The notes under the pieces are model-generated. The model worked only from the letters and a program-made list of their open reading frames with translations, was not told the DNA's origin and did not search any database. The position numbers were made by a program, and so were the translations under genes. From an uncultured Dehalococcoidales bacterium (GTDB lineage: Bacteria > Chloroflexota > Dehalococcoidia > E44-bin15), in the NCBI GenBank assembly GCA_964431905.1, contig CAYSLE010000001.1, positions 1,185-50,649 of the forward strand: a stretch of DNA of 49,465 nt, read 5' to 3'. This document shows positions 6,492-35,732 of this stretch, piece by piece; positions within the stretch are counted from its first letter, which is position 1; every line of letters begins with the position of its first letter.

Positions 6492-6935
6492 GTGAAGAGA
6501 GGAACCTATGCCCTAGTTATCGCCTTAGAAACGAAGAGGAAAGTCGACGTTGGCAAGCTGGGCCGATATAACTTCCCTGCGGGCTACTATATCTATGTAG
6601 GCAGCGCCGGTGGCGGCATCTCTCAAAGGGTGCAGCGCTATCTACGGGAAGGGAAAAAACTCAGGTGGCACATCGATTATCTGCTAGAGCAGGCCGAAGT
6701 AGTTGAGGTGTGGTATGCAGAGGATTCACAAGAGTGCCTTTGGGCCTCTGTAGTAAGAGGGATGCCTCAAGGTCAAATCATCGTTCCTGGCTTTGGCTCC
6801 TCCGACTGCCGTTGTCCCTCGCACCTGATATACTTTCCTCTCCTGCCGTCCTTCGAGCTTTTTCAAGGGATGCTCGGAGAAAAAGGCCACCGGGCGAAAA
6901 GAGCGTCTCCTACCGGCTTCCCCTCAGAGCGCTGA
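6492..6935 (+). CDS. GIY-YIG superfamily DUF123 protein
   Basis: GTYALV...YYIYVGSAGGG...RVQRYL...LRWHIDYL...SSDCRCPSHLIYF matches the DUF123/GIY-YIG pattern. GTG start. The 3' end overlaps the convergent hydrolase gene by 26 nt. Confidence 0.75.
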   Translation: MKRGTYALVIALETKRKVDVGKLGRYNFPAGYYIYVGSAGGGISQRVQRYLREGKKLRWHIDYLLEQAEVVEVWYAEDSQECLWASVVRGMPQGQIIVPGFGSSDCRCPSHLIYFPLLPSFELFQGMLGEKGHRAKRASPTGFPSER

Positions 6936-7554
6936 CGAAGAAGGATGCAACCGTTTCCCCAACCTGGTCCTCATAGCCCCACCAGAAGTGGTCGGCGCCG
7001 GGGATAACCTCGCACTGCTTCGGCTCAGCGAGGCTCTGGAAGAAGCGCTGGAAGTCCTCAAGTCGGGTGAAGTCGTCCCTAGTGCCGGTGACGATGAGTT
7101 TCGGCTTTGGGTATCCCCTAAGCCCATTGAGAGAGACCATAGAGAGCGGTGGGGAGATGGCGGCAGCCGCCTCAATCCGCCCATCCATGGGACTGGTTGT
7201 GAAGGCAGCAACAGCACCGGCGGAGTACCCACAAAGCCCTATTCTCCCACCATCTACCTTCTCCACAGAGGCGATGAAGGAAACTGCGGCGATAACGTCT
7301 TCGGGATCACCCATCCCTCCAACCATCCCCTGACTTCGGCCCACACCGCGGAAGTTGAACCTGAGGGCAAGGATTCCCTTGCGGCAAAGCGCCTGACAAA
7401 CGGCATAAACCACATTGTTGTCCATGGTGCCGCCGTAAAGGGGGTGGGGATGGCAGACCACCACCGCGGGAAAAGGGCCTGGCCCCTCGGGGATATGGCT
7501 TACGCCCTCAAGGGAGAGGTCGCCGCAGGGGAAGGTCGCATATTTCTCTTGCAT
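6910..7554 (-). CDS. Alpha/beta hydrolase (COG2945-like)
   Basis: The HPHPLYGGTMDNNVV pattern and nucleophile elbow GYSAG are present. I place the start at ATG 7554 (MQEKYATF) because it overlaps the rarA stop as ATGA; the listed ORF extends to 7587. Confidence 0.75.
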   Translation of the reverse strand: MQEKYATFPCGDLSLEGVSHIPEGPGPFPAVVVCHPHPLYGGTMDNNVVYAVCQALCRKGILALRFNFRGVGRSQGMVGGMGDPEDVIAAVSFIASVEKVDGGRIGLCGYSAGAVAAFTTSPMDGRIEAAAAISPPLSMVSLNGLRGYPKPKLIVTGTRDDFTRLEDFQRFFQSLAEPKQCEVIPGADHFWWGYEDQVGETVASFFVSALRGSR

Positions 7555-8894
7555 CACTCCTTCTCTTCCTTCTCCTTTCCTCCCCACCAGCCTTTGAGCC
7601 GCCTCTCCACCTCCGCCTCATACCCCTGGTCGCTGGGGGTATAGTAGCGCTGGCCTTGGAGGGCCGGAGGCAGGTTCTGCTGCTTGACAAAGTGGCCGGG
7701 GAAGTCATGGGCATACTTGTAACCTTTGCCGTATCCGATGCGCTTCATGAGGCCGGTAACCGGATTGCGAAGGTGAAGGGGCACGGGGTCGGTGCGCGTT
7801 CTCCGCACATCCTCCTGCACCTTAGAGTAAGCCTTGTAGAGCGAGTTGCTCTTGGGCGCTGTCGCCAGATAGACCACCGTCTGGGCCAGGGCTAGGTTGC
7901 CCTCAGGCATGCCGATGAAATGGACCGCCTGCTGCGCCGCCATCGCCACCACTAGCGCCTGGGGGTCGGCCATGCCTACATCCTCTGAGGCGAAGCGCAC
8001 CAGGCGCCGCGCCACATAAAGCGGGTCCTCACCGGCCTCAAGCATGCGCCCCAGCCAGTAGAGGCCAGCATCTGGGTCTGAGCCGCGGAGCGACTTATGA
8101 AGCGCCGAGATGAGGTCATAGTGCTGCTCCCCCGCCTTATCGTAGAGAAGGGCGCGATGCTGAAGGGCATCCTCGATGGTGGGTAGTGGTATATATCGCT
8201 TGCCCTCATCATCAGGCCCGGTGGCCAGGGCCGCCATCTCCAGGGCATTGAGGGCAACGCGGGCATCGCCATTGGCCATAATAACAAGGTGCTCCAGGGC
8301 GTCGGCCTCCAGCTCCACCCCCAGCTTGCCCAGGCCGCGCTCCTCATCGCTAATCGCCCGCTGGACAATGAGCCGAACCTGGTCATTGGTGAGCGGTTCC
8401 AGGGTGAAGACCCGACAGCGGGAGAGCAAGGGTGAGATCACCTCAAAGGACGGGTTCTCGGTGGTGGCGCCGATAAGGGTGATGGTGCCATCCTCGACGA
8501 AAGGTAAGATGACGTCCTGCTGTGCCTTGTTGAAGCGGTGAATCTCATCGATGAAGAGGATGGTCCTCTGAGCGTGCATGCCGCGGCGCTCCTTGGCCTC
8601 GTCGATGATGCGCCGCAGGTCGGCGACGCCGGCGGTGACGGCGCTGATGGGGCTGAAGTGAGAGCTTGTTATCCTGGCGATGATGCGGGCGAGTGTGGTC
8701 TTGCCGCTCCCGGGCGGGCCCCAGAAGATCATGGAGACAAGCTGGTCGGCCTCGATGGTCTTTCTCAGCACATGCCCCTCGCCAACGAGGTGCTCCTGGC
8801 CGACGAACTCGTCGAAGGTGCGGGGGCGCATTCGCGCTGCCAGTGGCGCCTCGCGCTCCAGTTGCTCCTCACGCCTAAGGTCAAACATATCCAT
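7554..8894 (-). CDS. rarA: Replication-associated recombination protein A (AAA+ ATPase)
   Basis: Walker [16 protein letters not shown], Walker [12 protein letters not shown], and the conserved MgsA C-terminal domain ([18 protein letters not shown]). Confidence 0.95.
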
Positions 8895-29723: not shown

Positions 29724-30206
29724 ATGCGGATTGGAATCGGCTATGACGTTCATCCTTTAAGGACGGGGCGCCCCCTGGTGCTGGGAGGGGTGAAGGTGCC
29801 CTTTGGACGCGGCCTGTGGGGCCATAGCGATGCCGATGTGGTGGTGCACGCCATTATCGATGCCCTCCTCGGCGCTGCTGCCCTGGGGGACATCGGCACC
29901 CATTTTCCACCCTCCGACCCCCAATATGAGGGCATATCCAGTATCATCCTCCTCCAGCGGGTTGGCCAGATGCTGGGTGCTCATGGCTTTGGAGTAGAAA
30001 ATATCGATGCCACCATCGTGGCCCAAGAGCCTAAGCTGGCCCCCTATATCGATGAGATGCGGCGCAATATCGGCGATGCGCTGGGCATTGACAAAAAACG
30101 GGTCTCGGTGAAGGCCAAAACCTCAGCGGGCCTGGGCTTTTTGGGCAAAGGGGAAGGCATAGCCGCCCACGCCGTGGCGTTGATAAGAAGACGGGGGGAC
30201 GAGTAA
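29724..30206 (+). CDS. ispF: 2-C-methyl-D-erythritol 2,4-cyclodiphosphate synthase
   Basis: MRIGIGYDVH and GHSDADVVVHAIIDALLGAAALGDIG motifs; 160 aa. Confidence 0.95.
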   Translation: MRIGIGYDVHPLRTGRPLVLGGVKVPFGRGLWGHSDADVVVHAIIDALLGAAALGDIGTHFPPSDPQYEGISSIILLQRVGQMLGAHGFGVENIDATIVAQEPKLAPYIDEMRRNIGDALGIDKKRVSVKAKTSAGLGFLGKGEGIAAHAVALIRRRGDE

Positions 30207-30207
30207 A

Positions 30208-31035
30208 GTGGCTACTGACAGCAATCTCGACTTGAAAACAATTATTGACCTCTTAAAGAAAGGCCGAACTACCGATTGGGATTTTGATCAAGATGAAGAG
30301 CTGCAAAAAGAGCATAGCGGATTGCTCAGGACAAGGCTTGAGTTTGTATGCCGCCTGCAATACCAGAAGGTTAAACTTTATGAGATGGACGCATCGGAGT
30401 TTCTGTCGTTTGCAAGACAGGATTTGCAGGACTATTCCGAAAGGGGAGGGATAAATGCACTGAGCAACGCTAAGCGGGCAATAGAATGTCGCATAGATGA
30501 GTTATTGACGCTATTTAATTTCAAAGGTTTTTCTTCGCGACATGGGTGGAAACTACCATACAAAATGCAAGTCCTCCAGACCTTTGAAGTAACAGCTCCA
30601 GACATACTGAGGCGTCACATAGTAAAAAAGCGAAACCTATTAGAGCATGAATATGTTAGACCCGACCGACAGGAAACTCAAGACGTTGTGGAAATAGCGG
30701 AGCTTTTTCTAAAGGCAACCGATGAATATGTTGAAAGAGGTTATGTAGCCTCTGCCGAAGTGAGTGAGACCAAGTGGTTTCCGGATTATGCGGATACAAC
30801 GAAAGCGCAGTTCCCGTACGATAGAATCATAGGCTTCTGCACTGAATACAAGCTGATTTTTGACCTCCACAATGAGAAATTAACAGTGAAACACTCAGAG
30901 AGTGAGCGCTACACTAAAGTAACTCGCTTAAGGTCAGCACCGCGGTCACGTCCCCTAGTTGTACCCATTCGTGACTGTGCAGAGGAAGATGTTAGAGACC
31001 TCATGGTTCTACTCATGAAAAAGGGGGGAAAATGA
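30208..31035 (+). CDS. Hypothetical protein with HEPN-like R-x4-H motif; low-GC insert
   Basis: 275 aa. GTG start 1 nt after the ispF TAA; the 3' end overlaps the cysS ATG (ATGA). [10 protein letters not shown] (R142-H147, nt 30631-30648) follows helical segments. My hand counts of seven 60-nt lines give 33-52% G+C, against 58% for the one cysS line I counted. Confidence 0.6.
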
Positions 31036-32465
31036 GGGTTTTAAGCATCCTCTCCGGCCGAAAAGAGGAGTTTGTGCCCCAAGGCGACCCGGTAAGGATG
31101 TATGTCTGCGGCGTCACCCCTTATAGCGATTGCCACGTCGGGCACGCTATGAGCTATATCCTCTTCGATGTCATCAGGCGCTATCTTGAGTTTCGCGGCT
31201 ACAGGGTGAAGCATGTTCAGAACTTCACCGATATCGATGACAAGATCATCGCCCGCGCCCATCAACTGGGCATCCCCCCACGTGAGCTGGCCGAGGCGTT
31301 CATCTCACAATACTTTGAAGATATGGATGCGTTGAATATCAAAAGGGCCGATCTTTATCCCCGGGCTACCGAGGAGATCCCTAAAATCATCGAGGTCATC
31401 CAGGGCCTCATCGAAAAAGGGCACGCCTATGAGGCCGGGGGAGATGTCTATTTTCGAGTGGATAGTTTCCCCCAGTATGGAAAACTCAGCCATCGGGGGC
31501 TTGGTGAGATGATGGCCGGAGCTGGCGGCGAGGAGAGAGGCGGGAAAGAGCATCCAATGGATTTCGCCCTGTGGAAGGCAGCCAAGCCCGGCGAGCCATC
31601 CTGGGAAAGCCCCTGGGGACCGGGGAGACCCGGCTGGCACATTGAGTGCAGCGCCATGTCCCTGAAATACCTGGGCCAGACCCTGGATATTCACGGCGGC
31701 GGGCAGGACCTCATCTTCCCCCACCATGAGAACGAGACCGCCCAGTCGGAGGCCTTCACCGGCGTAAGCCCCTTCGTCAAGTATTGGCTCCATAACGGGC
31801 TGATGCAACTGGGCGAGGAGAAGATGAGCAAATCGCTGGGCAATCTGATCACAGTCAGGGATGCCCTGGCCCGCTATAGCGCCGATGCCATCAGGCTCTT
31901 CGTCCTCAGCTCCCATTACCGAAGCCCCATCACCTATACCGAGGAAGGCCTGGAGGCAGCGGAGAGAGGGGTGGAGAGGCTGCGCCTGGCAGCACATCGC
32001 AGAAGCCCTGATTCAACGAATACGATCGTCGATGTTGCGTCTTATCGCCAGCGTTTCATCGAGGCTATGGACGACGATTTCAGCACCCCGCAGGCCATCG
32101 CCGTCCTCTTCGACCTGGCCACCGCCATTAACCAGGCTGGGGACGAGGGTTTTTCCATCGAAGGAGCGCAAAGGGAGCTGATGGAGCTAAGCGAAATACT
32201 GGGCTTGACATTTAGGGAATACCGTTTCAGGGTTGATGCTGAGGCAGTGGCTGGGGTGGCGGCACAGGTCGGCGTTAAGATAGAGGGAAAAGATAAAGAA
32301 CCGAGGACTGAAGACTATATACAACAAATGGTGGATAAGCGGAACGAGCTCAGGGCGCAGAAGCAGTGGGAGCTTGCCGATAAGATCCGCGCTGAGCTGA
32401 GAAAGCTGGGCATAATCCTCGAAGACACCCCCCACGGGACGGTGTGGCGATATCGGCGGTTCTGA
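31032..32465 (+). CDS. cysS: Cysteine--tRNA ligase
   Basis: HIGH-type CHVGHAMSY and KMSKSLGN motifs, C-terminal anticodon-binding helices; 477 aa. Confidence 0.95.
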
Positions 32466-32724: not shown

Positions 32725-32822
32725 GGGAGCGGATGGGTCCCGGTGGGCTCCGCGGACTTCAAATCCGTCGGCAGGTACCCTGCGGTGTCTGCGGTAGGTT
32801 CGACTCCTATGCGCTCCCGCCA
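32725..32822 (+). tRNA. selC: tRNA-Sec (anticodon UCA)
   Basis: Folded by hand. Acceptor GGGAGCGG/GCGCUCCC (7 WC pairs plus a terminal G:G). 6-bp D stem GGGUCC/GGGCUC with a 4-nt loop CGGU. Anticodon loop CUUCAAA (UCA at 32759-32761). 25-nt variable arm with a ~9-bp stem. T arm GUAGG-UUCGACU-CCUAU. Discriminator G and an encoded CCA. Confidence 0.85.
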
Positions 32823-32825
32823 ATG

Positions 32826-34676
32826 CTATCTTAAAACCCGCTCATCGCCGATGCGGCGGGTTATTTTTTGGCTGTCCAGGTATTCCATCAAGGCCAGGGC
32901 ATACTTGCGGCTGGTGTGAAACAGATCGCGAACCTCGGCCACTGTTATCCTGCCCTGGGACTTTATGTGGGCCACTATGGCTTCCACCATACTATCGTAG
33001 GCGGAGGCGGCGAAGACCACGTCATCGCTCACCTTCACCACCCGGCGCTGCTCTATGAGCAGATTGAGCAGGTCAGGGTCGGGCAGCGGTTCGCTGGGCG
33101 GGGAGTAAGGAGTGCGCGCCAACCCCTCTAAGAAAGCGTCAACTGCTGCCTGCTGCTGGGGGGTAAGCTGAATACGGTAACTTGGCAGATGCACCACTGG
33201 CCCGGCCTCAATCAGGGTGCCCTCCTGAAAAAGCCGTTCCAGGGCGTGGGCAAAGAACCTGGAGGGGACTTTCAGCCTGGCCCTCAGCTCCTCTTTGGGA
33301 AGGCCGTGGCGAAGCGGGAATTGCTGATGGTAGCTTTGGACCGCCAACCTCGCTTGCCTTGCCAGCTTCTCCCAGCCCTGGGCTGAGAAAAGAAGCCCCA
33401 TATCCCCCAATGTCATAACCCTCTTCTGTGCCACCAGCGCCTTTATGGCCTCCTCCGCCTCTTCTCGGGGCAGGTTGGATAGGGCCAGCAGCCTCGCCAG
33501 CTCAAGGGGCTCCTCTTCCTGGATCATGTTCAGAATCACCTGCTCGGCGTTGCCCCTCTCTCTGGTTGCCAGCCTCTGGATGATATCGGGGCGAAAGCGG
33601 CGGTGTCGCCTCGCCCTGGGATCGACAATCTGGCCGCCGCCCAGGGTCTCCTTGGGGGAGCGAATTATGAAGGGGTCATCCTTTACCGCGACAATTGGTT
33701 CCGCCAGCAAAACCTGAGCCCAGGTGGTCTCTCCGGGCTCGACCTTGTCCCGCTCCAGCAGGCGGACCTTGCCCTGAACCTCAGCCGCGCCGTGGTGAAA
33801 GGCGACGGTAGCATTGTGAGCCAGGGGGCGGGGTGCCGAGACCAAAAGGCGTAGCTTAACATCGGCAGCCCGGGTGGGGGTCAGCCAGCCCGGGCGGGTC
33901 AATACATCGCCGCGCTTTATCTCGCTGGTGGCCACCGCGGCCAGGTTGGCCGCCACCCGGCTCCCCGGCGAGGCAACATCGATCTTTCGCTTGTGGGTTT
34001 GCAGCCCGCGGATGCGGGCCATCACCGCCGGCGGGAGGATCTCCACCTCCTGCCCCTGGGATAGGTTGCCGTCGATCAGGGTTCCAGTGACCACCGTGCC
34101 AAAGCCGGCTATGGTAAAGACACGGTCTATGGGAAGCCTGGGCCGGCCCATATCCTTCCGCGGCGGCGTAAAGTCCAGAACCTGGTCGATGGTAGAAACC
34201 AGCTGGGGCAGGCCGTCACCGGTTAACGCCGATACAGCCACAATCGGGGCTTGAGCCAAGGTAGTGCCGGCCACAACCTCGCTCACCTCCAGCGTCACCA
34301 GCTCCAGCAACTCATCATCCACCAAGTCCTTTTTGGTGATCACCACGATGCCCCGTTCCACCCGGAGCAGGTCGAGAATGGCCAGATGCTCCCTGGTCTG
34401 GGGCATGACCCCTTCATCGGCGGCCACCACCAACAAGGCGAGGTCGATGCCGCCAACACCGGCCAGCATGTTCTTGATGAAACGCTCATGCCCGGGGACG
34501 TCCACAATGCCCACCTCTCGACCGCTGGGCAGGTCTAGCCAGGCAAAGCCGAGGTCGATGGTCATGCCCCGCTCCTTCTCCTCCCGCAACCTATCGGGGT
34601 CGATGCCGGTCAGGGCCTCAACCAGGACCGATTTCCCGTGATCCACATGGCCGGCTGTGCCCAGGACAAAGGACAT
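32826..34676 (-). CDS. selB: Selenocysteine-specific elongation factor
   Basis: G1 motif [13 protein letters not shown]-Tu-like domains I-III, and a long C-terminal winged-helix extension; 616 aa. Adjacent to selD and selC. Confidence 0.9.
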
Positions 34677-34679
34677 GCT

Positions 34680-35732
34680 TCACTCCTTGATTACGATCCT
34701 GCCCTTGGGTTGTGCCAGGACCTCGCCGATGATCGCTGCCCTCTCTATACCATCACGGTGCAGCTTTTGAAGAAGCGCCTTAGCCTTTTTTCCGGGGACC
34801 GAGATCAGCAGTCCCCCCGATGTCTGAGGGTCGAAGAGAAGGTTAAGCATCTCATCGGATATGTCATAGGTCAGCTCTATCATTTGCCAGCGAAATTCAC
34901 GATTGCGCTGCATTCCTCCCGGCACCAGCCCCATCTGGGCAAACTGGAGCGCCTCGGGAAATAGGGGGATAGATGCGACGCGGATCTCCATACCCACTTC
35001 GCTATTCTCAATCATGCCGCAGGCGTGGCCGAGGAAACCGAAGCCGGTGATGTCGGTGCAGGCGTGGACCCCTGCCTCCAGCATTAACTCCGATGCCCTC
35101 TGGTTCAAGGCGGCCATGCTTCGAGAGGCCCGGAGAATGGTCCCCCTCTCGGCCACCCCACCCTTTATGGCTGTGCTCACCAGTCCCGTGCCCAGGGGCT
35201 TGGTCAGGATCAGCTTATCCCCGACTTTGACCCCTGCCCTGGCGATGATCCTCAAAGGATGCACCACGCCGGTGACCGATAGGCCATATTTCAGCTCAAC
35301 ATCATCGACGCTGTGTCCCCCCACCAGGGCGACCCCCGCCTCCCGCAGCTTGTCGAAGCCACCGCGCAGTATGTCTTTGAGCACCGATATGTCCTGGGTC
35401 TTTATCGGAAAGCAGACCACATTCATCGCGGTGACTGGCCTGCCTCCCATGGCATAGACATCGCTCAGGGCATTGGCGGCAGCGATCTGGCCAAAGGTGT
35501 AAGGGTCATCGACGATGGGGGTGATGAAATCGATGGTCTGGATGATAGCCAGCTCATCGCTCAGCTTATAGACCCCAGCATCATCGCCCTTTTCCAGGCC
35601 CACCAGCAGGTTGGGGTCATCGACCACAGGCAGCCCGCACAAGGCTTTATCCAGGTCCGACGGACCTATTTTTGCGGCTCAACCTGCCCCGCGAACGCTC
35701 TCGGTCAGGCGTGGCCTCACCTTATCGTCCAT
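34680..35732 (-). CDS. selD: Selenide, water dikinase, selenocysteine-containing (in-frame TGA at 35679-35681)
   Basis: The listed ORF lacks the SelD N-terminus. Reading upstream in frame gives MDDKVRPRLTESVRGAG-U-AAKIGPSDLDKAL from ATG 35732 (GGGAGGA SD). TGA sits at the position of the catalytic Cys/Sec in the GxG(C/U)xxK loop. Confidence 0.85.
35653..35667 (-). promoter_or_regulatory. SECIS-like hairpin downstream of the selD UGA
   Basis: Minus strand AGGUCC-GUC-GGACCU (6-bp stem, loop GUC). It begins after an 11-nt spacer (GCCGCAAAAAU) following the UGA. Confidence 0.6.

Follow-up and report, generated by a model that had tools for sequence, protein, structure and literature searches.

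A candidate stand-alone HEPN RNase gene between ispF and cysS in an uncultured Dehalococcoidales bacterium

Introduction

Many toxin-antitoxin, abortive-infection, and CRISPR systems use RNases of the HEPN superfamily as their effectors. These enzymes are metal-independent, leave 2′,3′-cyclic phosphate ends, and build a composite active site through dimerization (PMC3710099). Their conserved motif is placed where helix 3 ends and extends into the loop that leads to helix 4, with a polar N, D, or H directly after the R; a second conserved acidic residue stands in helix 2, typically as Ex3[KR], and in proteins of the AF0298 type (2hsb) the H of this motif is typically missing (PMC3710099). Here we describe gene X, an open reading frame (ORF) of 275 aa located between ispF and cysS in a 49,465-nt stretch of DNA, hereafter the window, from an uncultured Dehalococcoidales bacterium (GenBank assembly GCA_964431905.1, contig CAYSLE010000001.1, positions 1,185 to 50,649 of the forward strand). 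According to structural models and alignments, its product is a HEPN-superfamily protein of a previously undescribed family closest to DUF4145, with its predicted catalytic residues intact.

The closest described systems are of several kinds. DUF4145 (PF13643), a divergent HEPN domain whose active site is of the R...H form, is found in single proteins that combine HEPN and non-HEPN parts and in fusions to restriction-type modules. RAZR, or PD-T7-4, is a one-gene abortive-infection RNase of the DUF4145 type that cleaves single-stranded RNA and tRNA (PMC13017515). The minimal HEPN proteins of the PF05168 type (2q00, 2hsb, 1wwp, and 1wty) and YutE (1ylm) are stand-alone domains of ~120 aa, usually paired with nucleotidyltransferases. 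HepT (DUF86, PF01934) shows the motif form R-x4-H-x-Y and is encoded next to an MNT gene; in HepT-MNT pairs, the tyrosine of this motif is the AMPylation site. Finally, single-gene HEPN Abi proteins (AbiD/AbiF of the Abi_2 type, AbiU2, and AbiV) were reportedly described by Anantharaman et al. in 2013.

Fold and family of the gene X product

We consider it very probable that gene X belongs to the HEPN superfamily and was acquired horizontally. Its product had no match in Pfam, even at E ≤ 10, in PADLOC, or, in a single-sequence search, among PDB sequences, and NCBIfam returned one non-significant match only (E 0.055, 12.6 bits for a cutoff of 475). A word-indexed search found 59 clusters of homologs, all unnamed; in the few cases where a source is named, it is a Chloroflexi or Dehalococcoidia metagenome-assembled genome (MAG). 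An exhaustive search found 1006 representative clusters (defined at 50% identity) at E ≤ 1e-3, and 473 at E ≤ 1e-10. Only about two dozen of the 1006 match over the full length, while the rest are ~210–250 aa long and have in common with gene X only residues ~58–177. Relatives occur in both bacteria and archaea and on a few viral contigs; distant ones with the HEPN domain only were seen in Methanosarcina (several copies per genome), Bathyarchaeota, a Micrarchaeota-like genome, Methanobacterium, Kosmotogaceae, and others, as well as on five IMG/VR contigs.

Conservation was analyzed in one alignment of 53 close homologs (A1) and another of 130 diverse family representatives (A2). Fourteen residues are invariant in A1: D72, N83, N87, K89, R95, D97, K119, L134, R142, N143, E146, H147, G178, and F218. 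In A2, R142 (nt 30631–30633) and H147 (nt 30646–30648) are the sole invariant columns, which argues against a chance occurrence of the RNxxxH motif; N143 and E146 are present in at least 90% of the sequences. The motif, part of a longer stretch at nt 30625–30654, fits the HEPN definition: in the model it closes helix 3 (142–146) just ahead of the loop to helix 154–177, N143 directly follows the R, and an insert separates helices 2 and 3. In helix 2, D97 is invariant and E98 present in at least 90% of the close homologs; the two are not spaced as Ex3[KR], and in A2 both fall outside the columns conserved in at least 90% of the sequences.

The alignment-based AlphaFold2 model of the full-length protein (mean pLDDT 89.3, pTM 0.85) places the four HEPN helices at residues 62–73, 78–102, 132–140/142–146, and 154–177, with the insert formed by 106–112 and 116–124. 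In this model, the HEPN domain is itself inserted into a single beta-rich domain, composed of strand 41–53 and strands 179–253 and capped by helices 9–18 and 259–273; the latter has the consensus DVRELMxLLRxK. Strand 41–53, which pairs with the C-terminal sheet, is preceded by a variable insert (residues 19–40) that is gapped in 74% of homologs. The beta-rich domain is much more variable than the HEPN domain, with a mean top-residue frequency of 0.39 versus 0.64–0.78.

When the full-length model was compared with the PDB using Foldseek, the high-probability matches were all HEPN proteins (2hsb, prob 0.99; 2q00, prob 0.97; 1wwp, prob 0.63). With a model of the domain only (pLDDT 83.8), seven of the eight top matches were HEPN structures, namely 2q00 chains A and B, YutE 1ylm, 1wwp, 1wty, 2hsb, and the HepT toxin 7ae6; chain B of 2q00 was matched with prob 1.00, TM 0.70/0.72, and an rmsd of 3.2 Å over 123 columns. 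The beta-rich part had no credible structural match in the PDB or in BFVD, the latter giving only noise with rmsd >20 Å and low probabilities. A profile of residues 179–275 returned one 63-aa fragment and missed the family itself, and is uninformative on the modularity of this domain. The 130-sequence family profile found nothing among PDB sequences. A Pfam scan of the same 130 relatives yielded sub-threshold matches to DUF4145 in 20 members (best E 0.002, range 0.002–1), to HepT-like in four (best E 0.02), to RiboL-PSP-HEPN in three (best E 0.001), and to Apea-HEPN in one. The recurrent families all belong to the HEPN clan of Pfam, CL0291, and the matches examined in individual relatives (HepT-like and RiboL-PSP) fall on the motif region.

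A first-pass annotation of this DNA, made by reading the letters without database searches, had recognized no family in the protein, noted a helical region at residues ~60–170 containing an RNxxxH motif (R142-x4-H147), and proposed a HEPN nuclease with an uncharacterized C-terminal domain of ~100 aa. The database searches, the invariance of the motif in close and diverse relatives alike, the modelled helices (~60–177, mean pLDDT 89), and the structural matches all agree with it. As for the C-terminal domain, it is indeed without a match, but the model joins it with the first ~57 residues in one beta-rich domain.

Among the described systems, DUF4145 is the commonest Pfam match of the family, yet gene X itself is not matched by the model, and the 20 relatives all stay below the gathering score; the family includes one fusion to a restriction-type module, P0095 (321 aa), in which an N-terminal Mrr_N (restriction-enzyme N-terminal domain, E 3e-27) precedes a gene X-type HEPN domain. 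RAZR has an N-terminal Cys4 zinc ribbon, where gene X has four widely spaced cysteines with no CxxC pair, no PADLOC match, and, as its accessory part, the beta-rich domain without structural match; the active-site spacing also differs (R146...H154 in RAZR versus R-x4-H). The minimal HEPN proteins and YutE are the best structural matches to the core (TM up to 0.72) at a sequence identity of 12–19%, and, unlike the AF0298-type proteins, gene X keeps the H of the motif. With HepT it has in common the form R-x4-H-x-Y (RNLLEHEY, with Y149 in at least 90% of A1) and a structural neighborhood (7ae6, prob 0.69, TM 0.52), together with the weak HepT-like matches on the motif region of relatives, which are far below threshold; however, it is twice the size of HepT, carries an extra domain, and has no adjacent MNT gene in the window or at most other loci. 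The single-gene Abi proteins follow, by analogy, the same logic as gene X (a mobile, patchily distributed, low-G+C gene for a HEPN RNase effector without cognate antitoxin), and AbiD/AbiF, AbiU2, and AbiV have no sequence match to it in Pfam or PADLOC. The gene X product thus has the fold and motif of the HEPN superfamily and falls outside DUF4145, RAZR, and HepT-MNT by their formal tests. It is in effect a new family of an already known kind, the stand-alone HEPN RNases; its predicted biochemistry is conventional, HEPN expectations stand, and no long-standing question is opened.

Acquisition at the ispF-cysS junction

Metagenome contigs were scanned with the CysS of the window, giving 80 loci, 50 of which have ispF upstream of cysS on the same contig. 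Gene X was found in none of these 50 sampled ispF-cysS loci. There, ispF and cysS either adjoin each other, in many cases overlapping by 4 nt, or have cysE between them, alone or together with gltX and with a G+C like that of the host. Alternative cargo was suspected in the gaps of 600–3100 nt found in ~20 loci and was rejected, because they contain cysE, in some loci accompanied by gltX, and their G+C resembles that of the host; the junction is thus no general hotspot of variation. Regarding gene order in the Chloroflexota-like contigs (L035–L114), PIN/TRAM-ispD-ispF is followed by cysS directly, or by cysE or gltX-cysE and then cysS, and the lineage of the window is of the direct type.

The closest relative, L035, has an amino-acid identity to the window of 92% for PIN-TRAM, 89% for IspF, and 84% for CysS (80–92% at the nucleotide level, about 87%). 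Its junction is empty, with only 6 nt between the ispF TGA and the cysS ATG. In a global alignment, the homology stops at 30182 and resumes at 31050, with a flank identity of 0.90 and 0.92 up to the two borders. The segment present only in the window consists of the last eight sense codons and the stop of ispF, the whole of gene X, and the first six codons of cysS; it has its own ispF tail (IRRRGDE versus IEKAGV in L035) and its own cysS head (MRVLSI versus MKVYNT). We considered whether the C-terminal tail of gene X, ending in MKKGGK, was a remnant of the displaced ispF tail and rejected it, as LLR(E/K)KG is the conserved C-terminus of the family itself at every site.

The composition of gene X also sets it apart. 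Its G+C content is 0.444, where ispD, ispF, and cysS have 0.57–0.60 and the window as a whole has 0.569, and its G+C at third codon positions (GC3, 0.446) is the lowest among ~48 long ORFs of the window (mean 0.674, standard deviation 0.070). The empty site in L035 and this anomaly together support a recent acquisition of gene X by horizontal transfer in the lineage of the window, the directly abutting junction of the L035 type then being ancestral.

Both borders of gene X are tight, and the segment preserves translational coupling to either neighbor (Table 1). The ispF stop occupies 30204–30206, and the stop of gene X (31033–31035) overlaps the cysS ATG (31032–31034). The GTG start is supported by the conservation of N-terminal residues in homologs, L9 and I13 being kept in at least 90% of them. 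A scan for promoters and terminators around gene X gave signals at shuffle level only, and an Rfam scan gave no match in or adjoining it. With the tight coupling, this suggests that gene X would be transcribed from the host operon, together with ispD-ispF-cysS.

Table 1 Position and basis of the features of gene X and its junctions in the window
Feature	Position (nt)	Strand	Description and basis
Gene X	30208..31035	+	Stand-alone HEPN-superfamily protein (predicted), 275 aa; GTG start, TGA stop; ORF list and sequence, homolog searches
N-terminal segment	30208..30378	+	Residues 1–57; model and alignment
HEPN-like helical domain	30379..30741	+	Residues 58–178; sole part common to ~1000 distant relatives; AlphaFold models, Foldseek
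Catalytic-motif segment (putative)	30631..30654	+	RNLLEHEY (R-x4-H-x-Y); A1/A2 conservation, position fits HEPN definition (PMC3710099)
C-terminal beta-rich domain and terminal helix	30742..31032	+	Residues 179–256 (highly variable) and conserved helix 259–273; model
Upstream junction	30193..30210	+	GGGGGGA Shine-Dalgarno-like run in replaced ispF tail, ispF TAA, 1 nt, gene X GTG; sequence
Downstream junction	31023..31035	+	GGGGGGA (31023–31029) within last gene X codons, Shine-Dalgarno-like for cysS, and ATGA overlap; sequence
Segment absent from L035	30183..31049	+	867 nt versus 45 nt in L035; global alignment

Insertion sites and exchange between lineages

Full-length homologs of gene X are always oriented with their operon and tightly packed in it, at no fewer than four kinds of site. 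The ispF|cysS junction is occupied in L034, L117, and L030, the last with hicB-hicA between gene X and cysS. The mdh|fumA junction of a TCA-cycle operon is occupied in L001, in L006/L028/L029 (where hicB-hicA follows), in L031–L033, and in L115/L116. The homolog of L119 lies between hypC and a HypF-like gene, called by eye from its translated N-terminus and not by profile search, and those of L003–L005 and L118 lie in a histidine-gene region. At two of these last loci, L003 and L118, gene X is flanked by a partial IGPD duplicate, with hisB fragments of 107 and 55 aa. Among the distant relatives, one of 240 aa on a plasmid of Vibrio sp. THAF191c (L121, 4929–5651) sits among small unrelated genes (DUF3265, VOC, NUDIX, YbaK, and GNAT) in what resembles an integron cassette array.

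The junctions resemble those of the window. L034 and L117 have similar G-rich ispF tails with gaps of 1–2 nt before gene X, and the overlap with the downstream gene is GTGA in L034 and 14 nt in L117 as well as in L028/L001 (with hicB). In every tightly packed case, the A/G-rich C-terminal codons (LLREKG) overlap or precede the start of the next gene, be it cysS, hicB, or hypC. The 100-nt spacer between mdh and gene X is not conserved in sequence and gives no evidence of a shared regulatory element.

The composition of gene X is nearly constant across loci (G+C 0.41–0.45, and 0.34 in L119), whatever that of the host, and its GC3 is below that of most neighboring host genes at every locus examined. 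The difference in GC3 is ~0.2 in the hosts of higher G+C and near zero in the loci of lowest G+C, L001 and L003; a composition deviating from the host was also found in L034, L117, L031, L115, and L119.

L034 and L117 have CysS proteins that are 91% identical over the first 203 aa, whereas their gene X proteins are only 54% identical. At the nucleotide level, the identity is 0.90 for cysS, 0.72 for gene X, and 0.79 for ispF, with a sharp step at the border between gene X and cysS. As read from these alignments, the pair is a recombination mosaic with a breakpoint at this border, and the divergence of gene X is decoupled from that of its hosts. Gene X is a recurrent, recombination-driven cargo of operon junctions, and it appears to spread by recombination through the conserved flanking genes.

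The first-pass annotation had described an ORF starting with GTG 1 nt past the ispF TAA, overlapping cysS as ATGA and supplying its Shine-Dalgarno sequence in its last codons, lower in G+C than its neighbors, and had proposed a horizontally acquired single gene. The sequence agrees exactly with this description, the measured composition with the low G+C, and the comparison of ispF-cysS junctions with an acquired insert and not an old core gene. It is not a one-off random event, though: three further lineages have diverged alleles at this very junction, and gene X also occupies other operon junctions.

The unusual side of gene X is evolutionary: a precise and repeated insertion between coupled housekeeping genes, a constant low G+C, the replacement of alleles at the same site, and a repeated joining by hicBA. 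The locus shows cleanly how a small, presumably conflict-type gene can enter a closely coupled housekeeping operon and leave it intact, and the empty site, the recurrent target junctions, and the mosaic make it useful for studying the flux of accessory genes in compact uncultured Chloroflexota genomes. The family, sizeable and present in no curated library, is a candidate addition to defense and toxin annotation resources.

Proposed role

By analogy with characterized HEPN enzymes, the gene X protein would dimerize through its HEPN domain and cleave RNA (tRNA, rRNA, or mRNA) without metal, leaving 2′,3′-cyclic phosphate ends, with R142 and H147 as catalytic residues assisted by N143 and E146. 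It might be kept inactive by its own variable beta-rich domain until triggered by infection or stress, and would then act as sensor and effector in one protein, in the manner of an abortive-infection protein or a toxin, as shown for RAZR. An autoinhibited sensor-effector is the most economical model because there is no partner antitoxin and because a variable beta domain accompanies a conserved effector core.

In the 26 loci compared, family members have no conserved partner gene beside them. This absence, the contrast between the conserved effector and the variable domain, the hicBA genes or hicB pseudogene that follow gene X in three lineages, and the Mrr_N fusion were all counted in favor of a role in biological conflict. 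So were the neighborhoods of relatives, which include a DNA methylase and an HNH gene (L016), a DUF4011 helicase (L018), putAbiC with Siphovirus Gp157 in a prophage-like contig (L023), and the Vibrio cassette array. On these analogies, a toxin or abortive-infection role is somewhat favored, and we regard gene X as probably, though by no means certainly, a horizontally acquired stand-alone HEPN RNase of the conflict type.

Several points weigh against this view. A toxin without antitoxin that is co-transcribed with essential genes needs tight autoinhibition, which is assumed here, and the RNase activity, the dimerization, and the trigger are predictions only. No HEPN-clan model reaches its curated threshold for gene X or its relatives, and the Foldseek E-values are weak (0.1–0.8; 0.16–0.8 for the domain only), so that the fold assignment relies on the consistency of the matches and on the motif. 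Weak E-values are to be expected for small helical bundles. In addition, no relative was found among 50,697 phage records (INPHARED), and many distant relatives stand amid ordinary housekeeping genes. Regarding the acquisition, a loss in the L035 lineage could replace the gain in that of the window; it is less parsimonious, as it would need a precise deletion restoring the junction typical of the phylum.

A bolder form of the conflict reading, which we think improbable, is that gene X represents a new kind of operon-embedded selfish or defense cassette, in which one HEPN protein would be both effector and sensor, the sensor having a new beta-rich fold, and the coding ends would double as translation signals. 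If so, the G-rich Shine-Dalgarno-like run upstream and the LLREKG codons, serving as ribosome-binding signal for any next gene, would avoid polar effects between coupled essential genes. The ispF|cysS and mdh|fumA junctions and the site upstream of hypC would be its targets, with exchange between lineages via the conserved flanks. Gene X would then be hard to delete without harming the downstream essential gene and would act as a landing pad for hicBA.

Alternative explanations

Gene X could instead encode a physiological RNase for RNA processing or RNA stress, involved in RNA damage and repair or in tRNA metabolism, whose position in the operon would reflect regulated co-expression with housekeeping genes. 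This idea comes mainly from a 216-aa relative in Acinetobacter baumannii (L120, NZ_CP098797.1, 5911–6561; WP_000468787.1, annotated as hypothetical), 36% identical over residues 62–177 (E 6e-11). It lies between rtcB and rtcA in an RtcR-controlled operon with the order RNase Z, RtcB, gene X-like, DUF6847 (DUF6847/DIP1984), and RtcA. The ends left by HEPN cleavage (2′,3′-cyclic phosphate and 5′-OH) are substrates of RtcB (PMC3710099). This context, present in one record only, suggests a link between this HEPN family and the repair of RNA with 2′,3′-cyclic phosphates, and the constant co-orientation and translational coupling of gene X within operons would suit a physiological function too. Such a function sits poorly with the very patchy distribution (absent from the 50 sampled ispF-cysS loci, with an empty site in the nearest relative), with a foreign composition in every host, with host operons that are mutually unrelated (isoprenoid/cysS, TCA, hyp, and his), and with a fast divergence decoupled from the host. 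We therefore hold it to be unlikely.

Equally doubtful is the possibility that gene X is one part of a three-gene X-HicB-HicA cassette, for instance a tripartite toxin-antitoxin or defense module with HicB or HicA working jointly with the HEPN protein, of which the copy in the window would have been orphaned by the loss of hicBA. hicB-hicA is found directly 3′ of gene X at two different chromosomal sites, mdh|fumA in L028 (5881–6341) and ispF|cysS in L030 (2323–2798), and L001 keeps a truncated hicB of 30 aa right after gene X (6848–6940), followed by out-of-frame remnants. HicAB also occupies the same intra-operon junctions and has a low G+C like gene X, and the nucleotide identity between L028 and L030, ~0.70 for gene X and ~0.78 for hicBA, is compatible with a co-transfer. 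However, the HicAB proteins are unrelated to that of gene X, and between the same two loci HicB and HicA are 85% and 79% identical versus 53% for the gene X proteins, so that an independent landing of hicBA beside gene X is possible. Moreover, hicBA is absent from the window and from L034, L117, L031, L115, L003, L118, and L119, where the invariant catalytic residues are all kept, and none was seen beside distant relatives. It is general knowledge that HicAB is a self-sufficient toxin-antitoxin pair, HicA being a small RNase of a different fold.

The first 12–13 nt of hicB (ATGAA[AG]GTCTATGA, encoding MKVYDF; L001 6848, L030 2323) are nearly identical to the start of cysS in L035 (2204) and L117 (2170) (ATGAA[AG]GTCTATAAC, encoding MKVYNT), while fumA, the downstream gene at the mdh site, has no such likeness to the hicB start. 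It could be a microhomology used in the insertion or deletion of hicBA beside cysS, or a coincidence. In L039 (3816–4001), where ispF is not nearby, the stretch directly upstream of cysS also resembles a degenerate hicA, at 41% identity and with no intact ORF. Judging from these sequences, hicBA may land repeatedly at cysS starts.

MNT was also considered as a general partner of gene X. A solitary MNT gene (NTP_transf_2/Polbeta, 118 aa) is present 1.6–1.7 kb downstream of gene X in L003–L005 and L118 only, with other genes in between, and MNT is absent elsewhere among the 26 loci; this candidate was rejected. The combination of hisB fragments and MNT gene nevertheless recurs in two loci, L003 (5603–5926 and 8500–8856) and L118 (2778–3134 and 3354–3521). 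The window, where ispF and cysS adjoin gene X without intergenic DNA, likewise bears out the earlier statement that no MNT or other antitoxin gene is adjacent.

Far less likely than either the RNA-repair or the tripartite explanation is an old, vertically inherited gene that was lost many times and stays AT-rich through weak selection on codon usage. The loose grouping of gene X by insertion site in a neighbor-joining tree points that way, although the branches are long and star-like and the resampling supports looked unreliable, so that the topology was not used for conclusions. The like ATGA/GTGA junctions of the window and L034 point the same way, as does the identity of gene X at the ispF site (52–57%), which is close to that of ispF (57–61%). 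Against these stand the empty site in L035, whose flanks keep 90% identity right to the borders, the 50 other sampled junctions, which are all empty or hold cysE/gltX, a GC3 that has not been ameliorated in hosts of 44 to 57% G+C, and the pair of hosts with 90% identity in cysS whose gene X proteins are only 54% identical, with a sharp breakpoint.

That gene X would be a catalytically inert or decaying HEPN-fold remnant without present function is just as implausible: although its activity is known as a prediction only and some relatives are split or truncated, as in L021 (two ORFs of 99 and 123 aa), its own ORF is intact, it keeps all 14 family-invariant residues, including R142, N143, E146, and H147, and the conservation of the HEPN core over ~1000 clusters implies purifying selection.

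Minor observations

Some Methanosarcina genomes carry at least two diverged copies of the short form (~215–235 aa) at unrelated loci, such as L012 and L018 in one MAG and L014 and L020 in one M. barkeri MAG. In L021, the split match extends over 7893–8353, which suggests a frameshifted pseudogene.

Just downstream of cysS, the window contains a tRNA-Sec gene (32725–32818, + strand; Rfam RF01852, 72.6 bits). The next two ORFs, at 32826–34676 and 34680–35642 on the − strand, look like SelB (with a GTPase N-terminus) and SelD and would form with it a selenocysteine-incorporation cluster.

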